In this document: positions 1 through 57,309 of the stretch, piece after piece
Layout of the letters: each line of letters starts with the position of its first letter
Numbering within the stretch: the stretch's first letter is position 1
Source: Nanobdellati archaeon
GTDB taxonomy: Archaea; EX4484-52; WAPT01
Length of the DNA: 64,000 bases
Assembly: GCA_015520605.1 (NCBI GenBank)
Contig: WAPT01000024.1
Span: 12,645 to 76,644 of the forward strand
Direction of reading: 5' to 3'
Notes under the pieces: generated by a model
Told to the model about the DNA's origin: nothing
Databases searched by the model: none
The model's input: the letters and a program-made list of their open reading frames with translations, nothing else
Position numbers and translations under genes: made by a program

Positions 1-421
1 GTTCCCCTCCCTGAAACTCAATCCCAATGTATTTTTTGGGAAGTTTTTCAATGAACCTCACACAATCTCTCATGATTTCTCCGTCCATCTCCACGAACCT
101 TTCGGGTGAGGATTCCGCATGGCAATACCTACATGCAAGATTACACCTCAGCGTTAGATTTATCTGAACGGTCACCATCGGCATCGAATGAATATAGCCC
201 AACCTTTTAATTATGTTCTTCAACACCCTGTTGATATTTCCCTCCGTTATGACAATGTTTCTTTCTTCTAACTTTTTCAGAAGGTCATCACTCACCTCTC
301 CCCTCCTGAGCATCCTCAGCTCCTTTTTGTCCAGAATTATCCAGTCTCCGAATCTTGTGGTCAGGAGCACTTTTCCATTGCTTAATTTTTTCTCGAAACA
401 TTCATTGGGTAGGTAGCGCAT
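1..421 (-). CDS. Radical SAM protein (second of a tandem pair), 5'-partial at the window edge. The N-terminus is present; an ~90-aa extension precedes the CxxxCxxC motif and may be RRE/PqqD-like.
   Basis: Hand translation of the minus strand from ATG at 421 gives MRYLPNECFEKKLSNGKVLLTTRFGDWIILDKKELRMLRRGEVSDDLLKKLEERNIVI...LTLRCNLACRYCHAESSPERF. The C-x3-C-x2-C motif (CNLACRYC) is typical of radical SAM enzymes. A GGGTGGTGGG Shine-Dalgarno-like run lies directly upstream, 14 nt after the stop of the preceding radical SAM gene. The ORF runs off the window start. Confidence 0.6.
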   Translation of the reverse strand, partial: MRYLPNECFEKKLSNGKVLLTTRFGDWIILDKKELRMLRRGEVSDDLLKKLEERNIVITEGNINRVLKNIIKRLGYIHSMPMVTVQINLTLRCNLACRYCHAESSPERFVEMDGEIMRDCVRFIEKLPKKYIGIEFQGGE

Positions 422-435
422 CCCACCACCCTATT

Positions 436-1359
436 TTATTGGGTTATGGGCACGATTTCATCAGCGCCGAAGTAATCGATATAAGAGTACCATACCCCCC
501 AGCATTTACTCCTCATCACGCATTTCTCGCAGGGTTCCAGCAGCCCGTAATTGTCCTCGAAACGCCTGTTTATTATCTGTTTCGTGGGTGATTTGTAACC
601 GTAAATGGTCTTCGGCTGCGGTGCGACAAACCTCCACAGGTGTTCCGGAAGGACGCAGTAGGGGAACCCGTAGAACTTAACTCTCAGTCCCGAGCTTTCC
701 ACGATCTCCGCGGCTCTGCTGAGGTTTTCGGTGATATCCGTCATTCTCACCGCAAAGAGCTCGGCATTTCTCAGAGCGTTTCCCGTTATGTCGAGAGCAT
801 GGAAGGAAAAAGCTTTAACATCGTCAAACATGCTCAGCACAAGGCTTGCGATTCTCTCCAGCTCCGTATAGTTTGCTTTCGTGACTATCGTCTTCAGCTC
901 AACGTTCATCCCCGCATCGAGAGCGTTTCTCACACCATGAATTGTTTCTCTGAAGCTCCCTCTCGCTCCCGTGACCCAGTCGTGTTTTTCCTCCTTCCAG
1001 GAGTGAAGCGCCACTATAACATGAATTATAGGATAAGCTGAAAGTCTCTCGGCAAAACAGCGCGAAGATAACCTCCTGCCGTTGGTGAGGAGAACGTAAC
1101 TCAGCCCGGGCCTTCTCGATTTTATCCTCTCAAGTATCTCAAAGAAGTCGTTCCTCACGGTTGGCTCGCCACCGGAAATTTCAAGGATTTGTATGTCTTC
1201 TGGCAGTGAAAGAACAAAATTCACAAGCTCGTTGGTACTTATTTTTTCCTTTTTCGCCCTCTCTCCGGAGCTCACCGCGCATATTTTGCAGTTATTGTTG
1301 CACTGATACCCGAAAACACAGTAGGCCTTTTTTATTTTCATCGTGCTCATATTCTTCAC
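436..1359 (-). CDS. Radical SAM protein with a SPASM/twitch-like Cys-rich C-terminal domain; putative peptide-modifying maturase.
   Basis: The ORF-track protein contains CNNNCKIC (CxxxCxxC) near the N-terminus and a GGEP glycine-rich motif. The C-terminus reads ...GFPYC...EPCEKCVMRSKCWGVW (CX2CX5C), as in SPASM domains. The codon at 1359 is GTG; in-frame ATGs at 1350 and 1341 are alternative starts. Confidence 0.8.
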   Translation of the reverse strand: MKNMSTMKIKKAYCVFGYQCNNNCKICAVSSGERAKKEKISTNELVNFVLSLPEDIQILEISGGEPTVRNDFFEILERIKSRRPGLSYVLLTNGRRLSSRCFAERLSAYPIIHVIVALHSWKEEKHDWVTGARGSFRETIHGVRNALDAGMNVELKTIVTKANYTELERIASLVLSMFDDVKAFSFHALDITGNALRNAELFAVRMTDITENLSRAAEIVESSGLRVKFYGFPYCVLPEHLWRFVAPQPKTIYGYKSPTKQIINRRFEDNYGLLEPCEKCVMRSKCWGVWYSYIDYFGADEIVPITQ

Positions 1360-2115: not shown

Positions 2116-2316
2116 TCATTTCGGCAACAGACCGGCCACATACTTCCCAATACCCACGATCTTGCCAAGCCACCACCAGTTGGATTGAATGGCACTGATG
2201 ATGGGGGATGCCACAGTTTCAAGCAGGATGTATGCGAGGGCGATACAGAGTATAAACACGACAATATAAATTATCAGCATTATCTGCCCGCCGACCAGAG
2301 CCTTTCTTCTGACCAT
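2116..2316 (-). CDS. Small hydrophobic membrane protein (66 aa, two predicted TM segments).
   Basis: ORF-track protein MVRRKALVGGQIMLIIYIVVFILCIALAYILLETVASPIISAIQSNWWWLGKIVGIGKY. It has an ATG start and lies 12 nt downstream of the preceding small ORF on the same strand. Confidence 0.35.
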   Translation of the reverse strand: MVRRKALVGGQIMLIIYIVVFILCIALAYILLETVASPIISAIQSNWWWLGKIVGIGKYVAGLLPK

Positions 2317-2328
2317 AAAATCGACCTT

Positions 2329-2484
2329 TCAGCCTCCAGCCTTTTCCCAAGGGAGGTCTGCGAGACCGAAGATTTTGTCCACAGAACCTTTACCTAATTT
2401 TATTATTATAAGTACCACGGCAGTCATTAATAATATAATAAAGATGATCTCCACCCAGGAGAGACCTTTATTGCTTCCGCGCAT
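2329..2484 (-). CDS. Small class III signal peptide (archaeal type IV pilin-like) protein of 51 aa. It falls below the ORF-track size cutoff.
   Basis: Hand translation: MRGSNKGLSWVEIIFIILLMTAVVLIIIKLGKGSVDKIFGLADLPWEKAGG. It carries a KG|LSxxE prepilin-peptidase-type motif followed by a hydrophobic helix. Its ATG overlaps the TGA of the upstream pilin-like gene (TGATG). Confidence 0.45.
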   Translation of the reverse strand: MRGSNKGLSWVEIIFIILLMTAVVLIIIKLGKGSVDKIFGLADLPWEKAGG

Positions 2485-2990
2485 CAGCACTCACCTGTTT
2501 TCCCACAAGTAGAATTAATGACTATACATATGCTCTGACAATTATCTTTGGTAATTGTGATATTAGTTTCCTTACCGTCTGCGGGTGCGGTAATTTCTGC
2601 GGTGCAGGTGCCGTCATCGGACACGGTGCACTCAGCTTCCGGCTTATCATTCGATTTTATAGTTACCGTGCCGCTTGTGGTGCCTGTGAGTTTCAGGTTT
2701 ATAACGCACTTTCCATCGTTGTTCTTTGTTATGTCCTTCAGCTCAATTGAACATGATGTGCTGCTGCCACCCCCCACGGTTTCATTGACTTTCTCCCCTA
2801 TGCCCACGGTTGTCTGATTTATCGATTGTTTTGTGGATTTGAACGCAGGAAGCAGAGTACCGCCGTATACCCGTATTATAATCGCAGCCATTATCATGAG
2901 TATAAGAAGAATTATTATTATTTCCAAAAATGAAAGACCTTTTTTATACCAATCCCGTATGTTTTGTGTAAACATTTTGCGTTGGGGCAT
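2484..2990 (-). CDS. Archaeal type IV pilin-like protein with a class III signal peptide and a Thr/Cys-rich C-terminal domain.
   Basis: The ORF-track protein has ...YKKGLSFLEIIIILLILMIMAAII (KG|LSFLE, Glu at +5) followed by a Ser/Thr/Cys-rich secreted domain. Its start codon directly abuts the stop of the upstream gene. Confidence 0.6.
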   Translation of the reverse strand: MPQRKMFTQNIRDWYKKGLSFLEIIIILLILMIMAAIIIRVYGGTLLPAFKSTKQSINQTTVGIGEKVNETVGGGSSTSCSIELKDITKNNDGKCVINLKLTGTTSGTVTIKSNDKPEAECTVSDDGTCTAEITAPADGKETNITITKDNCQSICIVINSTCGKTGEC

Positions 2991-3194
2991 TTACCATTTA
3001 CCTCCTGTTATGTTCTTCATACCTTCCTGTACCGTCTGGTTAGATTTTTCTATACCCGAACTGACGAGTTCTCCGAACTTGTGCAGGTTGGCACCCCCTA
3101 TTTTAATAATAATATATCCCATAACCATGGCGATTATGATAACTATAACTATCCAGAACACCTTCTCAAAACCCTTTCGCACACTTGCCATCAA
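2991..3194 (-). CDS. Small membrane protein, possibly a minor pilin-like protein.
   Basis: ORF-track protein MMASVRKGFEKVFWIVIVIIIAMVMGYIII... It has an N-terminal RKG motif followed by a hydrophobic helix, and a 4-nt ATGA overlap with the upstream gene. Confidence 0.4.
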   Translation of the reverse strand: MMASVRKGFEKVFWIVIVIIIAMVMGYIIIKIGGANLHKFGELVSSGIEKSNQTVQEGMKNITGGKW

Positions 3195-3379
3195 ATCACC
3201 ACTCCGAATTTCGCCCTTGCAACATCCATAATTTTGTCAAAAATACTCTTTATTTTTTCATCAAGTTTAACATTCCAGTGTTTGAAAAGTACAATAAAAA
3301 TAAAGGTCAGAAACACAAGCAACAGTATAATAAACACAACTTCTATATGAGATGTGCCCTTCTTTCCCTGCTTGACCAT
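3191..3379 (-). CDS. Small class III signal peptide (pilin-like) protein.
   Basis: ORF-track protein MVKQGKKGTSHIEVVFIILLLVFLTFIFIVLF... It has a KG|TSHIE motif (Glu at +5) and is the first gene of the minus-strand array. Confidence 0.5.
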   Translation of the reverse strand: MVKQGKKGTSHIEVVFIILLLVFLTFIFIVLFKHWNVKLDEKIKSIFDKIMDVARAKFGVVI

Positions 3380-3557
3380 AACTTATAAATGTGATACTCA
3401 CCTTAAATATATTATGGTATTTCTCAGCACGAATAGTACAACATACAGAAAGGGTCTGCAGCTGTCGATATCTCTTCTCATAACTCTCCTGTTCGGAATC
3501 CTGCTCCTCTACGTGCTCTTTCACACAGCATTGACATATTTTGGAAGGTAGTGGTTC

Positions 3558-3773
3558 ATGCCGGGAGGCACATTTAAAAGAAGGAAAGGTCTTGAATTGG
3601 GCCTAACGGAATTCGGGCTGATAATGCTGGCACTTTTCATAGGTATGATTATTTTTGTTTTTTTGACCAAGGAAGGCGGATTTCTGGATAAAGTCAGAGA
3701 AACGGGATGCGACCTCAGCAGTTTCATAACAGGTTTTCTGAAAATCATCGGTATCAATACGTCCATTTGCTAA
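3558..3773 (+). CDS. Small pilin-like / class III signal peptide protein, divergent from the minus-strand array.
   Basis: The ORF-track protein has ...KRRKGLELGLTEFGLIMLALFIGMIIFVFL, with a KG motif followed by a hydrophobic helix. It is convergent with the IleRS gene. The antisense ORFs 3521..3766 and 3603..3785 were judged less likely. Confidence 0.4.
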   Translation: MPGGTFKRRKGLELGLTEFGLIMLALFIGMIIFVFLTKEGGFLDKVRETGCDLSSFITGFLKIIGINTSIC

Positions 3774-3781
3774 TAAACGAG

Positions 3782-6700
3782 TCACGCCCCAATAATTCTG
3801 AATTTGATCCGGATTCCCTCAGTTTCAAATTCATCTCCGTCCTCCACAGTTTCAAACCTAACGGATATATTGGTGTCCTTTTCAATCATTTCCTTCCATC
3901 TCTCCACGAACTCCTTACTTCCCTCAACAGCAACCACAGCCTTATCCTCAAACCTCAGACCAAGTTCCTTCCTCGCGAGCTGAATTCTCCTTATGAATTC
4001 CCTTGCGATACCCTCCTCCTTAAGCTCGGGTGTTAGTTCAACCTTAAGAAGCACGGCGGTGTTCTTCACCACTCTGCCGTCATAGCCTTCGGGCAGGGAA
4101 ACCAACTTCACTCTAACATCGATCATGTCTCCTGTTAGTTCAAAACCACCAATCTCGATTCTTCCATCTTTTTCAAGAGCTTCGAGCACATCCTTTCCGT
4201 TTAGAGACTTGAGCGCCTCCACAACCTCTCTAGTTCTCTTTCCGAATCTGGGTCCTATAACATCATACCTTGGTCTCACTTCGTAATCTAATTGGATGTC
4301 ATCCCTTATTTTAACTCTCTTCACATTCGCGAGTTTCATGATTATCTCCTTTAGATTACCAAGAGCTTCGGTGAGCTCATTCGCGGAGAGCACAACCTCT
4401 TCGAGAGGCCACCTGAGCCTTATATTGCGGCTCTGCCTCATGGAGTTTACCTCCTCCACCACACCCATGACAAGATCCATTTTGCTTTCCAGAGTTTCGT
4501 CGATTTCCTTTTCGTTCCATGAAGGCCAGGACAGCAGATGTATGGATCCCTCTCTTACAATCTCTCTGAAAACCTTGAGATAGAGGTACTCAGCAACATA
4601 CGGTGTAAACGGCGCAAGCATTTTCAACACTTCGAAGTAAGCTCTGGAGATGACGTAATCCATGGCATCCCTGTCCACACCTTCATCGTACCTCTCCTTT
4701 GCTATTTTCAGGTAGAATCGCGAGAAGTCTTCCATCACGAAGTTCACGATTTCCCTGGCAGCGTAATGGAAGTGGAAGGTGTCTATGTACTCAGTAACTC
4801 TTTTTATGGTTGAGTTCAACCTCGAGAGCAACCATCTGTCTTCGGCCCTGCTTACATACTGTTGGTTATCAAGCCTTATCTTTACACCGTACATGTCGAT
4901 GAAATTGGAAATATTGACAAGAATGTTCATGAAGCGGAAAAGCTCCTTTGCTTCATTCATGCTGAACTTGTGCGTTTCCCATGGAGCTGTGCTGTAGCAT
5001 ACGTAAAGCCTTAGAACATCAGCACCAAGCTGCTCGAAGGCCTCCTCAGCCGAGATCACGTTGCCCAAGCTTTTGCTCATCTTCTCTCCTTTTTCATCAA
5101 GAACCCATCCGTTCATGCACACAACATCGTATGGCCTCTCTTTGAAAGTTGCAGCTGACATGAAAAGCATCGCGTGGAACCATCCTCTTATTTGATCCTG
5201 AGATTCATCAACCAGATCAACGCGCCACAACTTGTTAAACAGACCGCTATCATTGTAAGGGTAGCCGAGTGATGCCCAAGGAGCGACACCGCTCTCCACC
5301 CATATATTTATTATGTCTGGAATCCTTTTCATTTCCCCTCCACACTTCTCGCAGCGCAGCACAACTTTATCAACGACATGCTTGTGAAGATCATCAAGCT
5401 TAACTTCATTTATCATTCTCTCATCCAACTCCTTTTTGCTGCCGATGGCAATCATGTGTCCACAGTTCTTACACTCCCAGATTGGGATCGGAGCTCCCCA
5501 GTAGCGCTGCGTGGATATACACCAATCCTCTTCATTCTCCACCCAATGCTTCATTCTCTCCCTTGCAAAATCAGGGAGCCACATTGTTTCTTCGTTGAAT
5601 TTGAGCATGAGATCCTTTATCGGATCGATGCGGAAGAACCACTGGTCGGTGGTGCGATAAATTAAAGGTGTCTTGCACCTCCAGCAGAGCGGGTAGCTGT
5701 GTACTATTCTCTCAGCATGGAAGAGCAAACCTTTTGCTCTCAGATGTTCTATTATCTCCTTATCGGCATCCTTCGCAAACTTACCTTTAAGCCATCCAGC
5801 CTCGCTGGTAAACCTGCCCTCATCATCAACAGGAGAGAGCACGGGCAGGTCATAATGCTGCCCGAGCTTGTTATCCTCAGGCCCGTGGCCGGGGGCACAG
5901 TGCACTATCCCTGTACCGACATTCATCGTTACCATGTGGCCGAATACTTCCTCTTCACTCTCCTTACTTTCGATCTCTTTCTTGACCATAACCTTAGAAG
6001 CAACTACTTTCTTCAGAATCGGTACAGACAGCACTACCCTATGGGCTCTCCCGCTCTTTGCAGCTTCCTGCTGAACCGGCAGCTCTGACATGAGGGGCTC
6101 ATATTCTATCCCGTCAAGATCCTTACCCTTTAAGACTTCCACAACCTCATAACTTTCAATTCCCGCTCTTTTCATCACATCTTCAAGCCTTTTCTCAGCA
6201 AGAATGAGAATCTCATCATTGACCTTCACTTTAACGTAGTTCTCGTCTGGATGCACAACGAGAGCTACATTGGCTGGCAGAGTCCACGGTGTGGTGGTCC
6301 ACGCAAGGAGGTATTCATTCTCCTTGTCCTTAACCTTGAACTTAACATAAATGGAAGGGTCTGTGACATTCTTGTATGAATCCGTTGCCTCATACCCCGA
6401 AATGGAGGTCTGACACCTCGGGCACCAGTGGATTGGTTTTTTACCCTTGACCATCAACCCTTCATCGAAGAGCTTCTTGACGGTCCACCATGTGCTCTCT
6501 ATATAGTATGGCTCATAAGTCAAGTAGGGCTGTAGCCAACCCTTCCAGGCTGCAAGATCTTTATAGTAGTTCATCCACTCGGTAAGATTCTGAGTGGCAA
6601 ACTCCTTACACATCTTTATAAAGTTCTCAACACCAACTTTTTCTTCAATCTCCTTTTTGGATTGTATGCCAAGTCTCTTTTCCATCATGTTCTCAATTGG

Positions 6701-6973
6701 CAGTCCGTGGCAGTCAAAACCCGGCTGGAACCAGACAGCATAACCATTCATGAACTTAAACTTACCCCAGAGATCCTTGAAGACTATGGTCATGGCATGC
6801 CCGGCGTGGGGTGGCGCATTTGCATACGGAGGACCATCAAGTAGATAGAATTTCTTACCCTTTTTCTTTAGATTCTCCTCGAAGTCCACAATTTTTTCTG
6901 GGACTTTGTTCTTCTCCCAGTACGCCTTAACTTCCTGCTCGATCTTTCTGAAATCGTACTGCATGGTGATCAC
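3782..6973 (-). CDS. ileS: Isoleucyl-tRNA synthetase.
   Basis: 1063-aa class I aminoacyl-tRNA synthetase with a PPYANAPPHAGHA (HIGH-type) motif, a KMSKSLGN motif and Zn-finger cysteines. The codon at 6973 is GTG; an in-frame ATG (MQYDFRKIEQ...) lies at 6964. Confidence 0.93.
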   Translation of the reverse strand: MITMQYDFRKIEQEVKAYWEKNKVPEKIVDFEENLKKKGKKFYLLDGPPYANAPPHAGHAMTIVFKDLWGKFKFMNGYAVWFQPGFDCHGLPIENMMEKRLGIQSKKEIEEKVGVENFIKMCKEFATQNLTEWMNYYKDLAAWKGWLQPYLTYEPYYIESTWWTVKKLFDEGLMVKGKKPIHWCPRCQTSISGYEATDSYKNVTDPSIYVKFKVKDKENEYLLAWTTTPWTLPANVALVVHPDENYVKVKVNDEILILAEKRLEDVMKRAGIESYEVVEVLKGKDLDGIEYEPLMSELPVQQEAAKSGRAHRVVLSVPILKKVVASKVMVKKEIESKESEEEVFGHMVTMNVGTGIVHCAPGHGPEDNKLGQHYDLPVLSPVDDEGRFTSEAGWLKGKFAKDADKEIIEHLRAKGLLFHAERIVHSYPLCWRCKTPLIYRTTDQWFFRIDPIKDLMLKFNEETMWLPDFARERMKHWVENEEDWCISTQRYWGAPIPIWECKNCGHMIAIGSKKELDERMINEVKLDDLHKHVVDKVVLRCEKCGGEMKRIPDIINIWVESGVAPWASLGYPYNDSGLFNKLWRVDLVDESQDQIRGWFHAMLFMSAATFKERPYDVVCMNGWVLDEKGEKMSKSLGNVISAEEAFEQLGADVLRLYVCYSTAPWETHKFSMNEAKELFRFMNILVNISNFIDMYGVKIRLDNQQYVSRAEDRWLLSRLNSTIKRVTEYIDTFHFHYAAREIVNFVMEDFSRFYLKIAKERYDEGVDRDAMDYVISRAYFEVLKMLAPFTPYVAEYLYLKVFREIVREGSIHLLSWPSWNEKEIDETLESKMDLVMGVVEEVNSMRQSRNIRLRWPLEEVVLSANELTEALGNLKEIIMKLANVKRVKIRDDIQLDYEVRPRYDVIGPRFGKRTREVVEALKSLNGKDVLEALEKDGRIEIGGFELTGDMIDVRVKLVSLPEGYDGRVVKNTAVLLKVELTPELKEEGIAREFIRRIQLARKELGLRFEDKAVVAVEGSKEFVERWKEMIEKDTNISVRFETVEDGDEFETEGIRIKFRIIGA

Positions 6974-6997
6974 ACAGCTTAATGTTTAAGGGAGGAA

Positions 6998-7010
6998 AAT
7001 TTTTAAGGGT
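6998..7010 (-). promoter_or_regulatory. TATA-like box (TTAAAAATTTT on the minus strand) about 30 nt upstream of the ileS start, suggesting a leaderless or short-leader transcript.
   Basis: An AT-rich TATA-like motif lies at archaeal promoter spacing from the start codon, and no Shine-Dalgarno sequence sits between them. Confidence 0.3.
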
Positions 7011-7305
7011 AAACGAGACATGAGGAAAAACAAAATCACATTGTTGAATGAAAATTATTTTAATTTTTAAAAGGTTTTAAAAGAAAAATTCCCGTAAACA
7101 GAACTGCGTACTGCATACTGATATTAAGTTAAGGAGCACAAGCTCGAGGTTAGTAATATTCCTTTACTCTCTGAAGTCGGAATTGTATTGACGGTTTAAG
7201 ACTGCCAATGGTTTGAAGGATAAGAAACAAAAAGTGAGAGATTCTACGAGAAAAATTAATCTGGTCAATCGGTGTTAGCAGAAATAATGTTGAGGTGTCT
7301 GAAAT

Positions 7306-8229
7306 ATGAAAAACTACGAAAAAATTATGAAAAACATTGAACGGCTCGGTGAGAGATATTGCAGAAGATATCTTGACCCGTGGAACAAAGAAAGGTTGCA
7401 GACCAATTGGTGGGAAGCGCTAAAATTCCTTCTTAGCCATTCGTTTATGAGAGGAAGACGAGACAAATTGTCTAACGAATATTATTATTTTACCATTGAA
7501 ACTTTGAAAGATTATTTTTCCATCACTGATGGAGATCTGAACACATCTTATGAGAAGCTTAAAGAAAAGAAAAAATATTTTGACAAAGAATGTATTTTGA
7601 AGTTCAAGAAGAATAAAAATATTGGAAGAAAAAATAGCATTAAAGATCCAGATTTCAGGAAGGAAGTAGTAGGAAAAAATCCAATTGTAAAGCTTCTAAT
7701 TACTCCAAAAGAAGTCAAAGTAAAATGGGACAACAAAACTTACAATAAGGTAACTTGCTTAGGTAATGATGAAGATATAATGATGGTTCTTGATGTTTTG
7801 AAGCTCATTTCAGATGATGATAAGAAGAATATTTACAATTATTTAAGAGATGCGATTGTCAATTTCGGGGTTAAAGCAGCGTATGAAGAATTGATAAACA
7901 TAAGAGCTGTTTCAGATAAAATCTCCACTTTCATCATCAGAGATATTGTTTTAATGAATCCACAAATAAAAATGACATATGAGGACGCCAAATGGGCATT
8001 TCCTATGGATACGTGGGTAATTAAAATTGCCCATAAGTTAGGTTGTAATAGTGAAGATATCGAAAAAATCAAAAACCATCTAATTGATAGGTGTAGGGAA
8101 TTGGGGGTAGATCCGTTAAAGTTTGTAGCAGGGCTATGGTTCTTGGGTTACCATTCGCTTGATATATTGCTAGAAAATTGTATAGGAGAGATCAAAATTG
8201 GGGACATTACTTCGGATAGCATCGGATAA
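7306..8229 (+). CDS. Divergent HhH-GPD-superfamily (DNA glycosylase-like) protein, encoded in an AT-rich island.
   Basis: The ORF-track protein contains ...AVSDKISTFIIRDIVL...FPMDTWVIKIAHKLG. This resembles the helix-hairpin-helix plus catalytic-Asp motif (xPVDTHVxRV) of EndoIII/Ogg/AGOG-type glycosylases. The gene and its flanks (about 6974-8416) are markedly more AT-rich than the rest of the window. Confidence 0.45.
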   Translation: MKNYEKIMKNIERLGERYCRRYLDPWNKERLQTNWWEALKFLLSHSFMRGRRDKLSNEYYYFTIETLKDYFSITDGDLNTSYEKLKEKKKYFDKECILKFKKNKNIGRKNSIKDPDFRKEVVGKNPIVKLLITPKEVKVKWDNKTYNKVTCLGNDEDIMMVLDVLKLISDDDKKNIYNYLRDAIVNFGVKAAYEELINIRAVSDKISTFIIRDIVLMNPQIKMTYEDAKWAFPMDTWVIKIAHKLGCNSEDIEKIKNHLIDRCRELGVDPLKFVAGLWFLGYHSLDILLENCIGEIKIGDITSDSIG

Positions 8230-12445: not shown

Positions 12446-12843
12446 AACTGAATATGGCTAAAAAGGAGTTCAGGTTTAGAGGATACACACTTGAAGAGCT
12501 CCAAAAAATGAGCCTTGAGGAGTTTGCCGAGCTACTCACAGCCAGAGTAAGAAGACACTTGAGGAGGGGGCTCACCCATGCCGAAAAGAAGCTCCTGGAG
12601 AAAATAAGAAAAACTTCTAAGGACAAGTTCATAAAAACACATGCGAGAGACATGATAATACTGCCTGAAATGGTCGGCAGAACCATTGGTGTTCACAACG
12701 GAAAGGAGTTCGTACCGGTCACCATAACCCCAGAAATGATAGGTCACAGGCTTGGTGAGTTCGCTTTGACAAGAAAGCCTGTACAGCACAGTGGTCCTGG
12801 TATAGGAGCATCCAAGTCCACAAAGCATGTGGGTAGGAAGTGA
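12442..12843 (+). CDS. rps19: Ribosomal protein uS19. The likely start is at 12454 (MAKKEF...).
   Basis: S19 signature ...GKEFVPV...GHRLGEFA. Confidence 0.92.
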
Positions 12844-26351: not shown

Positions 26352-26438
26352 GCCGCGGTCGCATAGCCTGGTAGTGCGCCGGCCTTGAGAGCCGGTGCCC
26401 GCAAGGGCGCGCAGGTTCAAATCCTGCCCGCGGCGCCA
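26352..26438 (+). tRNA. tRNA-Ser (anticodon TGA).
   Basis: Hand-folded cloverleaf with acceptor GCCGCGG/CCGCGGC, anticodon loop CTTGAGA, a long variable arm (GCCC/GGGC stem), T-arm GCAGG-TTCAAAT-CCTGC, and an encoded CCA. Confidence 0.85.
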
Positions 26439-30593: not shown

Positions 30594-30667
30594 GCCCCCG
30601 TAGTCTAGTCAGGCAAGGATATCGGCCTCTCGAGCCGATGGCCCGGGTTCAAATCCCGGCGGGGGCA
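30594..30667 (+). tRNA. tRNA-Glu (anticodon CTC).
   Basis: Acceptor GCCCCCG/CGGGGGC, anticodon arm TCGGC-CTCTCGA-GCCGA, T-arm CCGGG-TTCAAAT-CCCGG. CCA is not encoded. Confidence 0.8.
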
Positions 30668-32455: not shown

Positions 32456-32531
32456 GGTGGACCGGCCGGGATTTGAACCCGGGGTCTCCGCCTTGCGAAG
32501 GCGGCGTCCTTCCAGGCTAGACTACCGGCCC
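32456..32531 (-). tRNA. tRNA-Ala (anticodon CGC).
   Basis: Minus-strand cloverleaf with acceptor GGGCCGG/CCGGTCC and the G3:U70 identity pair. Anticodon arm CCGCC-TTCGCAA-GGCGG, and an encoded CCA. Confidence 0.85.
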
Positions 32532-42021: not shown

Positions 42022-42096
42022 TGGGGCCGCCCGGATTTGAACCGGGGTCACCGGCGCCCGAGGCCGGGATGATGGACCAAGCTACACCACGGCCCC
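42022..42096 (-). tRNA. tRNA-Pro (anticodon CGG).
   Basis: Minus-strand cloverleaf with acceptor GGGGCCG/CGGCCCC, anticodon arm CCGGC-CTCGGGC-GCCGG, and T-arm CCCGG-TTCAAAT-CCGGG. Confidence 0.8.
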
Positions 42097-57235: not shown

Positions 57236-57309
57236 GCGCCGGTAGTCTAGTGGTATGATACCGCCCTGCCACGGCGGGGGCCCGGGTTCAATTCCCGGCC
57301 GGCGCACCA
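57236..57309 (+). tRNA. tRNA-Gly (anticodon GCC).
   Basis: Acceptor GCGCCGG/CCGGCGC, anticodon arm CCGCC-CTGCCAC-GGCGG, T-arm CCGGG-TTCAATT-CCCGG, and an encoded CCA. Confidence 0.85.

Follow-up and report, generated by a model that had tools for sequence, protein, structure and literature searches.

A five-gene archaeal cassette, probably a diverged relative of the His-Xaa-Ser maturation system, with a tryptophan-repeat protein as presumed substrate

Gene content and family assignment of the cassette

At the left end of the 64,000-nucleotide stretch of DNA that was analysed here (the window; positions 12,645 to 76,644 of contig WAPT01000024.1, assembly GCA_015520605.1, from a Nanobdellati archaeon) a group of closely packed genes is read from the minus strand (Table 1). 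A first-pass annotation had reported in this place two tandem, co-oriented radical S-adenosylmethionine (radical SAM) genes of the peptide- or protein-maturase type, and both are present where it put them. It had not seen the gene of an HxsD-like protein and the open reading frame (ORF) of a small tryptophan-repeat protein, which identify the system. The gene order is HxsD-like protein, Trp-repeat protein, HxsC-like enzyme, HxsB-like enzyme and, beyond the window edge, a polytopic membrane protein. The reference models were those of the His-Xaa-Ser (HXS) system, i.e. HxsA (TIGR03979), HxsB (TIGR03978), HxsC (TIGR03977) and HxsD (TIGR03976). The region probably represents the 3' half of an archaeal operon of five genes, which would be related to this maturation system, though diverged, and would have the Trp-repeat protein as its substrate.

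The 3' end of the HxsD-like gene and the start of the Trp-repeat gene overlap by 23 nt. The HxsC-like and HxsB-like genes are separated by a 14-nt spacer that reads TAA-AATA-GGGTGGTGGG-ATG from stop to start, and the Shine-Dalgarno sequence described previously between these two genes was thus recovered. The spacing of this gene pair is tight and conserved (1-38 nt), and purine boxes of the GGTG(A)/GGAGG type also precede the HxsB-like start in the related loci L001, L007, L008 and L133. For the part of the HxsB-like gene that is cut off by the window edge, contigs L213, L214 and L215 were used, which are 99.98-100% identical to the window at the nucleotide level over the overlap. They encode a protein of 461 aa, the first 140 aa of which are identical to the window fragment.

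For the HxsC-like protein, TIGR03977 was the best NCBIfam match (E=6.4e-54; 182.8 bits against a cut-off of 267.9), and on the HxsC4 model it scored 83 bits against a cut-off of 500. The CxxxCxxC motif that had been located at residues ~20-27 proved to be C20-x3-C24-x2-C27 (Pfam Radical_SAM, E=4.8e-20). At its C-terminus the protein carries C235 (in ..GFPYC..), C277, C280 and C286 (CEKCVMRSKC), and this C235...C277-x2-C280-x5-C286 pattern is invariant in an alignment of 16 HxsC relatives that includes bona fide or annotated HxsC. The proposal that these additional cysteines belong to a SPASM or twitch domain holds in so far as they form an invariant four-Cys motif of the auxiliary-cluster kind; a match to Pfam SPASM (PF13186), which has a seven-Cys motif, was not obtained. 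An AlphaFold2 model built from the 16-relative alignment (predicted local distance difference test, pLDDT, 86.6) had BlsE, viperins, SuiB (TM 0.67 over the whole length) and SkfB as closest solved folds. SuiB is a SPASM enzyme, whereas BlsE and SkfB are twitch enzymes, and the model is in keeping with just one auxiliary cluster of the twitch type. A ~20-residue insertion (YKSPTKQIINRRFEDNYG, residues ~255-272) is situated between a beta-hairpin and the CxxC motif. It is unique to the clade that is associated with Trp-repeat proteins, forms the sole internal low-confidence stretch of the model and is a candidate substrate-specificity element.

The HxsB-like protein was assigned in a similar way. 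Its 140-aa window fragment matched TIGR03978 best (E=6e-21, 74.7 bits), and the full 461-aa protein reached 250 bits against a cut-off of 370 (E=3.6e-74) in a nearly full-length alignment (residues 11-441 to profile positions 7-452), followed by the maturases PapB, SCIFF, QhpD and DynA. A word-indexed protein search with the fragment gave no matches. Because the hidden Markov model (HMM) matches span both radical SAM proteins over their full length, a chance motif can be ruled out. In the off-window part, residues 336-396 matched Pfam SPASM (24.2 bits, gathering cut-off 21.5). Since this was the only SPASM match of the pair, the domain belongs to the second enzyme and not, as had been anticipated, to the first. 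The CNLACRYC motif of this second enzyme, expected after about 90 residues, occupies residues 93-100. The extension of ~90 aa that precedes it is a conserved feature of HxsB, the TIGR03978 alignment starting at residue 11.

The nature of this extension was addressed by profile and structure comparison. The best relative of the HxsB-like enzyme among solved structures is the sactisynthase CteB of the SCIFF type (5wgg, with an N-terminal recognition element, RRE, for peptides that are ribosomally synthesized and modified post-translationally, RiPPs), with which the radical SAM core and the SPASM domain can be aligned (E=7e-23), whereas over the first ~45 residues the sequences do not match. A profile of seven HxsB-type N-termini matched CteB as well (E=1.8e-8), from CteB residue 59 onward, which covers only the end of the N-terminal domain and the linker. 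A single-sequence AlphaFold2 model of the fragment, of low confidence as a whole (pLDDT 46; 61-79 in residues 11-50), contained strands at 8-12, 18-22 and 27-30 and helices at 32-39, 45-53 and 60-74. This is the beta-beta-beta-alpha-alpha-alpha order expected of a PqqD-like RRE. Pfam gave no PqqD match in the N-terminus at E<=1, and Foldseek with the low-confidence model gave no match at E<=0.001. An RRE-like domain at this position is plausible.

The third assignment concerns the small HxsD-like protein, which matched TIGR03976 with E=1e-7 (32 bits, cut-off 50), and for which a precomputed PF27806:HxsD assignment is on record, both for the identical gene product and for homologues. It has an invariant L21-Y22 and an FFxELLxAExEE helix, which resemble the LYW and LLNDYxLRE motifs known to matter in the HxsD of Escherichia coli (PMC13128918). 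Profile searches of the PDB with the HxsD-like protein and with the downstream membrane protein revealed no relatives.

The two enzymes could also be a housekeeping pair outside RiPP synthesis, namely an anaerobic sulfatase maturase or enzymes of cofactor (heme d1 or MoaA-like) biosynthesis. The sulfatase maturase family TIGR03942 (119 bits), structure 4k36 and NirJ/MoaA do appear among the lower-ranked matches. However, these families score far below their own cut-offs and below the Hxs models, and instead of sulfatase, heme or molybdopterin genes it is an HxsD-like gene and a repeat-protein gene that adjoin the pair. The anaerobic sulfatase maturase, which was the counter-scenario of the first-pass annotation, was therefore rejected, as the Hxs models outscore TIGR03942 and no sulfatase gene adjoins; with HxsC and HxsB as best families a housekeeping function of the pair deserves hardly any credence.

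Table 1. Coordinates of the cassette and of other features (window positions unless a locus is named)
Feature	Position	Strand	Remarks
HxsD-like small protein	1685-2056	minus	123 aa from ATG 2056; mechanical ORF reaches GTG 2176
Trp-repeat protein, presumed substrate and HxsA analogue	1414-1707	minus	97 aa; public assemblies also call a 97-aa gene
Hydrophobic segment ALNMFLLFTAVCSLPLL of Trp-repeat protein	1591-1641	minus	residues 23-39; Kyte-Doolittle mean 2.0 over 17 residues
Segment CVTNEQSWKDLQNEYNNWL of Trp-repeat protein			residues ~52-72
Trp-rich tail WNNWINWHDWSEWCDWSNWSN of Trp-repeat protein	1417-1503	minus	residues 69-97; W-LNNH-WNN-WIN-WHD-WSE-WCD-WSN-WSN-GGH
HxsC-like radical SAM enzyme	436-1359	minus	307 aa if started at GTG 1359; public gene calls start at ATG 1350 (304 aa)
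Shine-Dalgarno-like box GGGTGGTGGG	422-431	minus	between HxsC-like stop (436-438) and HxsB-like ATG (419-421)
HxsB-like radical SAM/SPASM enzyme, 5' part	1-421	minus	140 codons from ATG 421; rest cut by window edge
Polytopic membrane protein	L213:7312-8130		272 aa; off-window, same organism, just past window position 1
Homologues of polytopic membrane protein	L001:8308-9138, L007:7284-8078, L008:7307-8146, L009:7312-8007, L134:5810-6697
Cys-rich orphan, convergent	L213:8081-10300 (minus), L001:9089-11335		739-748 aa; N-terminal hydrophobic segment
Small ORFs (block 2116-3773)	2116-2316, 2329-2490, 2484-2990, 2991-3194, 3191-3379	minus
Small ORF of the same block	3558-3773	plus
Isoleucyl-tRNA synthetase (IleRS)	3782-6973
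Low-GC segment	6900-8400		30-36% GC, ~45% around
Orphan ORF	7306-8229	plus	307 aa; inside low-GC segment
tRNA genes	26352-26435, 30594-30667, 32458-32531, 42022-42096, 57236-57306

The tryptophan-repeat protein and its homologues

The Trp-repeat protein (MSWRDRFRKMRSMLVSKDDCEGALNMFLLFTAVCSLPLLSKLAHTQSTHHNCVTNEQSWKDLQNEYNNWLNNHWNNWINWHDWSEWCDWSNWSNGGH) starts with a basic N-terminus and a hydrophobic helix and continues with a linker, in which Cys52 is conserved, and a Trp-rich tail; it matched no family in Pfam or NCBIfam. The tail is acidic and contains seven tryptophans at an exact period of three, with N, D or E at the third position of each unit. Nine tryptophans in 33 residues were counted against a background of 1.2% in the long ORFs of the window (binomial P~2e-10), and the corresponding DNA pattern (TGGNNNVAN)x5TGG occurs once in the window as against 0 times in 100 shuffles. 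The seven consecutive W-x-x units (six to nine in homologues) have the aromatic-X-X (omega1-X2-X3) form by which triceptides are defined. Of the marks of an HXS effector, the protein lacks H-x-S repeats, a match to the TIGR03979 family and a peptidoglycan-binding domain, and a hydrophobic N-terminal segment is present.

The hydrophobic segment is flanked by a net charge of +2 at its N-terminal and -4 at its C-terminal side, and it is also present in all six archaeal homologues. Residues 23-39 are therefore a putative signal-anchor or transmembrane helix, for which the positive-inside rule favours an N-in/C-out orientation in the window protein and in those of L007 and L008. A Trp-ladder of the thrombospondin type (WxxWxxWxxC or WSxWS) was considered for the tail and rejected, the protein being far too short and without Arg/Cys layers or a partner strand.

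A word-indexed protein search with the Trp-repeat protein returned a 98% twin as its sole match. An exhaustive phmmer search over 1.84 billion representative proteins yielded three true relatives, which became seven related loci with locus look-ups. Among 80 metagenomic loci with HxsC-like relatives a Trp-repeat protein was seen in L133 and L134 only. Viral contigs were also searched. With the HxsC profile they returned just unrelated stand-alone radical SAM proteins, and with the (TGGNNNVAN)x5TGG pattern at least 120 matches, all of which came from collagen-like or simple repeats read in another frame.

The same five-gene order was observed in L001 (a DPANN metagenome-assembled genome named 'Nanobdellati archaeon'), L007, L008, L009, L133, L134 and L213-215. 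Compared with the window, HxsC identity is 96% in L001, 62% in L007, 47% in L008, 44% in L009, 43% in L133 and 36% in L134. The genes that flank the cassette in L009 are different, which indicates that the five genes travel as a unit. In the six loci from L001 to L134 the Trp-repeat protein has kept its slot between the HxsD-like and HxsC-like genes. The homologues share a basic N-terminus, a G-x-L-N/S that leads into the hydrophobic helix, the conserved Cys and then W-x-x-V/L-x-x-E/I-Y/F-N/S/A-x-W-L/Q, after which the repeat units follow up to a final G-N/S-G. There are six to nine W-x-(N/D/E) units, with X3 almost always N, D or E and usually one W-C-D/E unit among them; repeat-core substrates typically vary in their number of repeats in this way. 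The L134 homologue keeps the plan, with a Trp tail that is shorter, irregular and non-periodic (SWGNHCWWNWWAHH).

The last gene of the cassette, which starts in overlap with the HxsB-like stop or right next to it, encodes a membrane protein of 230-295 aa across loci. This protein has a conserved G..PAE motif and, at its C-terminus, a basic segment followed by a final hydrophobic helix, and no relative was found in Pfam, NCBIfam, PADLOC or the PDB. It is probably part of the cassette, and it possibly serves export, processing or immunity.

Small proteins of comparable design were encountered next to HxsC-like enzymes in other contexts. L010 encodes an 81-aa W-repeat peptide, with a leader without hydrophobic helix and the repeat WTDWSNWQNWDDWGQWGQWSAW, ending in HWGLRPEWTDWSNWQNWDDWGQWGQWSAWDNAD. 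Its gene is directly upstream of an HxsC-like radical SAM enzyme (CxxxCxxC after start correction) and of a 512-aa SPASM-type radical SAM enzyme. A third radical SAM gene is found in L010 on the opposite strand, and the surroundings (L010:1-3106 and 3667-7352) contain a DUF1156 N6/N4 methyltransferase and a PIN/MazE toxin-antitoxin pair, a company that resembles a defence island. In the more distant HxsC-like loci L195 and L185, proteins of ~80 aa with a basic N-terminus and a hydrophobic helix adjoin short HxsC-like enzymes. Their tails are HASHTSHGSHGSHGSHGSHGNW, ending HGSHGSHGS. On the NCBIfam HxsA4 model the L195 protein scored 61 bits and passed the cut-off of 55, whereas the L185 protein remained below it with 39 bits; the best family of the L195 enzyme is HxsC4. 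Such His-repeat mini-variants (HxsA3, HxsA4 and HxsC4) are already in NCBIfam. As these HGS-repeat proteins occupy the equivalent slot, an anchor followed by a C-terminal three-residue aromatic repeat beside HxsC recurs with either His or Trp. In view of the lack of detectable homology between the Trp- and His-repeat proteins, an analogous architecture is claimed and not common descent.

These comparisons bear on the question whether the tail is modified at all. The protein might be an unmodified membrane-interface or surface protein, with its tryptophans on one face of a helix of three residues per turn, while the radical SAM enzymes act elsewhere. Trp-rich amphipathic tails can bind membranes unmodified, the tail in L134 is shorter and non-periodic, and homology to the HxsA families is lacking. 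Against this, the slot between HxsD and HxsC is strictly kept across loci whose enzyme identity is as low as 36%, a W-repeat peptide occurs again beside an HxsC-like enzyme in the unrelated context of L010, HxS-repeat mini-proteins fill the same slot in related clusters, and the cassette holds no other candidate substrate ORF. An unmodified Trp protein is accordingly considered highly improbable.

Comparison with known maturation systems and proposed role

The HXS system was first shown to be an anti-phage defence in 2026, and 99.7% of HXS systems occur in Pseudomonadota (PMC13128918). Processing of E. coli HxsA requires HxsB, HxsC and HxsD together, and HxsC binds HxsD (PMC13128918). Matured HxsA is exported and retained in the envelope, where it blocks the entry of phage DNA; as HxsA is basic and binds DNA, an electrostatic DNA-trapping model was put forward (PMC13128918). 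The second-cluster motifs of both E. coli radical SAM enzymes matter for function, and the CxxC of HxsC (C342/C345), the equivalent of that in the archaeal HxsC-like enzyme, is described as a second 4Fe-4S site, mutation of which lowers HxsA processing and abolishes defence (PMC13128918). The sole mass-spectrometry data on Hxs place a +8 Da change on a single SHRSS motif, and HXS has not been reconstituted in vitro (PMC13128918).

With this system the archaeal cassette shares two adjacent radical SAM enzymes, one of the HxsB type with an N-terminal extension and a SPASM domain and one of the HxsC type with a second-cluster motif containing CxxC at its C-terminus. It also shares a small partner, here HxsD-like, with LY and acidic-helix motifs, and a linked protein in which an N-terminal hydrophobic export or anchor signal is combined with tandem repeats of three residues, the first of them aromatic. 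It differs in its host, a DPANN archaeon instead of a member of the Pseudomonadota, and in its HxsC-like protein, which lacks the N-terminal domain of ~90 aa found in canonical HxsC, as was evident from the alignment of 16 relatives. Furthermore, an acidic 97-aa W-x-(N/D/E) protein without a peptidoglycan-binding domain takes the place of a basic H-x-S HxsA that has one, and an extra conserved membrane-protein gene follows the archaeal cassette. PADLOC v2.0.0, which holds no HXS model, gave only generic viperin radical SAM matches on the locus, and neither a model in NCBIfam nor a paper in the literature was found on a Trp-repeat Hxs variant or on an archaeal Hxs-like cassette.

The mini-variants HxsA3 and HxsA4 with HxsC4 (NF038309, NF038313, NF038332) resemble the Trp-repeat protein in size and plan (~80-90 aa, with a basic N-terminus followed by one hydrophobic helix and with a repeat of three residues at the C-terminus), and their genes likewise directly precede that of an HxsC-like radical SAM enzyme of short length (~300 aa). 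Here, however, the repeat is W-x-(N/D/E) instead of H-G/T-S, and HxsC4-type clusters have multiple HxsC paralogues and lacked HxsD in the loci seen. Many of the metagenomic loci L135-L212 (e.g. L147:3462-6635, L154, L172, L163 and L176) carry three to five tandem HxsC-like radical SAM paralogues, some of them fused into proteins of ~1050 aa, and most lack HxsB or HxsD. They are a large unexplored type of multi-radical-SAM cluster, related to the HxsC4/HxsA4 variants.

A second group of relevant enzymes is formed by XncB, YhhB, HaaB, HtkB, OscB and ChlB, radical SAM enzymes that form triceptides, or three-residue cyclophanes, at aromatic-X-X motifs (PMC11499958); WprB cross-links three WPR motifs in one precursor (PMC11851443). 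Repeated aromatic-X-X motifs in the substrate and a radical SAM/SPASM maturase are common to these systems and to the cassette. In contrast, triceptide systems use one enzyme and not two together with HxsD, and X3 is K, A or R in the examples that two papers name (PMC11499958, PMC11851443) against N, D or E here. The presumed archaeal substrate moreover bears a putative membrane anchor. The HxsB-like protein of L001 scored 75.9 bits on the YhhB model (NF041707) against a cut-off of 445, and GrrM/OscB (TIGR04261) and FxsB (TIGR04269) appeared for the L010 enzyme only, with 67-68 bits against cut-offs of 310-370. As to sactionine chemistry, thioether formation is not the obvious reaction because the presumed substrate has only two Cys and no Cys-rich core.

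It is on this basis likely, by analogy with HXS, that the cassette is Hxs-like and that the Trp-repeat protein is the substrate of both radical SAM enzymes and HxsD. Several observations weigh against this reading or limit it. All three Hxs matches, although best-ranked and nearly full-length, are below the NCBIfam trusted cut-offs. The gene order in the cassette and in six related loci is D-A'-C-B, whereas 99.6% of HXS systems have D-B-C-A (PMC13128918). In an hhalign comparison the Trp-repeat protein showed no homology to HxsA4-like proteins (probability 0.4%), so that its substrate role would depend on position and analogy, and the topology is ambiguous in L009 and L133, where Lys is present on both sides of the helix. 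The HXS model of DNA trapping does not transfer either, since the Trp tail is acidic and HxsA is basic and DNA-binding. As regards the chemistry, the HxsB-like and L010 enzymes fall outside the known cyclophane synthase families, which argues against a cyclophane; moreover, the shift measured for Hxs is +8 Da and not the -2 Da of a cyclophane, so that even in canonical Hxs triceptide chemistry has yet to be established. Because of the scores below cut-off, the absence of an HxS-repeat effector, the different gene order and the archaeal host the cassette is not an HXS member in the NCBIfam sense. It is probably a diverged variant that works in a similar way.

The strongest competitor of an envelope-retained product is a classical secreted RiPP, in which the N-terminal ~65 residues, hydrophobic stretch included, would be no more than a leader and the W-x-(N/D/E) core would be cyclized by a triceptide-type synthase, cleaved and released as a diffusible (e.g. 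antimicrobial) peptide. A radical SAM/SPASM enzyme with a maturase-like N-terminal extension whose profile matches CteB, the ranking of PapB, SCIFF, QhpD and DynA after HxsB and a core that fits the triceptide definition (PMC11499958) are all in line with such a product, as is the L010 leader, which has no hydrophobic helix. Yet that helix is kept in all six archaeal homologues, the conserved cassette contains neither a protease nor an ABC exporter, and for the HxsB-like or the L010 enzyme YhhB, GrrM/OscB and FxsB score far below HxsB. A second radical SAM enzyme and HxsD indicate the Hxs architecture, the E. coli product of which is a retained envelope protein. Release as a diffusible peptide is thus improbable.

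If the Trp-repeat protein is the substrate of an Hxs-like machinery, maturation could proceed as follows. The HxsC-like enzyme, with the HxsD-like protein as partner as in E. coli, and the HxsB-like enzyme would bind the 97-aa protein in the cytoplasm, the latter possibly through its N-terminal, perhaps RRE-like, domain. 5'-Deoxyadenosyl radicals would then be used to modify the C-terminal W-x-(N/D/E) units, most plausibly by linking side chains once in every unit of three residues, be it as a triceptide-like Trp-to-X3 cyclophane or through the as yet undefined modification of the Hxs type. The outcome would be a rigid ladder of six to nine modified units. After modification the signal-anchor helix would insert into the membrane, perhaps assisted by the downstream membrane protein, and the acidic Trp-rich tail would be exposed on the cell surface. 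Since links from an aromatic residue to a side chain two residues away are well documented for radical SAM/SPASM enzymes, a Trp-to-X3 cross-link is the most economical guess, although the specific cyclophane chemistry is tentative and rather doubtful. Its role is speculative: by analogy with HXS the modified tail might be a surface barrier against viruses, or it might be a surface or host-contact structure of the DPANN archaeon.

The full proposal, a surface-anchored DPANN protein whose tail is turned by an Hxs-like radical SAM pair into a ladder of six to nine contiguous Trp-based cross-links or other Hxs-type modifications, has to be rated as unlikely, and its consequences are given as conditional. 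It would represent a class of modification not yet described in archaea, with a possible function as envelope barrier to the entry of viral genomes or as host-contact device, and would imply that the Hxs machinery is a general maturase of aromatic-X-X repeats and not specific for His-Ser. Independently of this full proposal, the probable Hxs-like cassette extends Hxs-type systems from Pseudomonadota to genome-reduced DPANN archaea, in which modified surface proteins and antiviral defence are hardly known. The natural swap of His-x-Ser for Trp-x-(Asn/Asp/Glu) in a smaller and simpler substrate would offer an orthogonal handle on the function of HxsB and HxsC, with Trp being convenient to track by ultraviolet absorption, fluorescence and mass spectrometry. 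With as many as nine Trp cross-link sites placed back to back, such a peptide would also be an unusual natural-product scaffold. The Trp-repeat family is extremely rare in public data and would not come up in family-based annotation.

Neighbouring features of the window and related contigs

A horizontal-transfer island was considered for the cassette and rejected, because its GC content of 44-50% is like that of the neighbouring IleRS gene. The low-GC segment further into the window contains an orphan ORF without a Pfam match, and may be an inserted element. In L001, L007 and L213 the gene that comes after the cassette encodes the Cys-rich orphan, which has no family matches; in L008 and L009 this position is taken by proteins of 585-602 aa. 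No rRNA genes were detected in the 64-kb window, which has five tRNA genes. Between the IleRS gene and the HxsD-like gene six small ORFs (53-168 aa) were found, mostly on the minus strand. This block is syntenic in L001, L007, L008 and L213, and not in L009. Several of the N-termini (KKG-LSFLE-IIIILL, NKG-LSWVE and KKG-TSHIE, with Glu at +5) resemble type IV pilin or class III signal peptides, and Pfam N_methyl gave a weak match (E=0.08).

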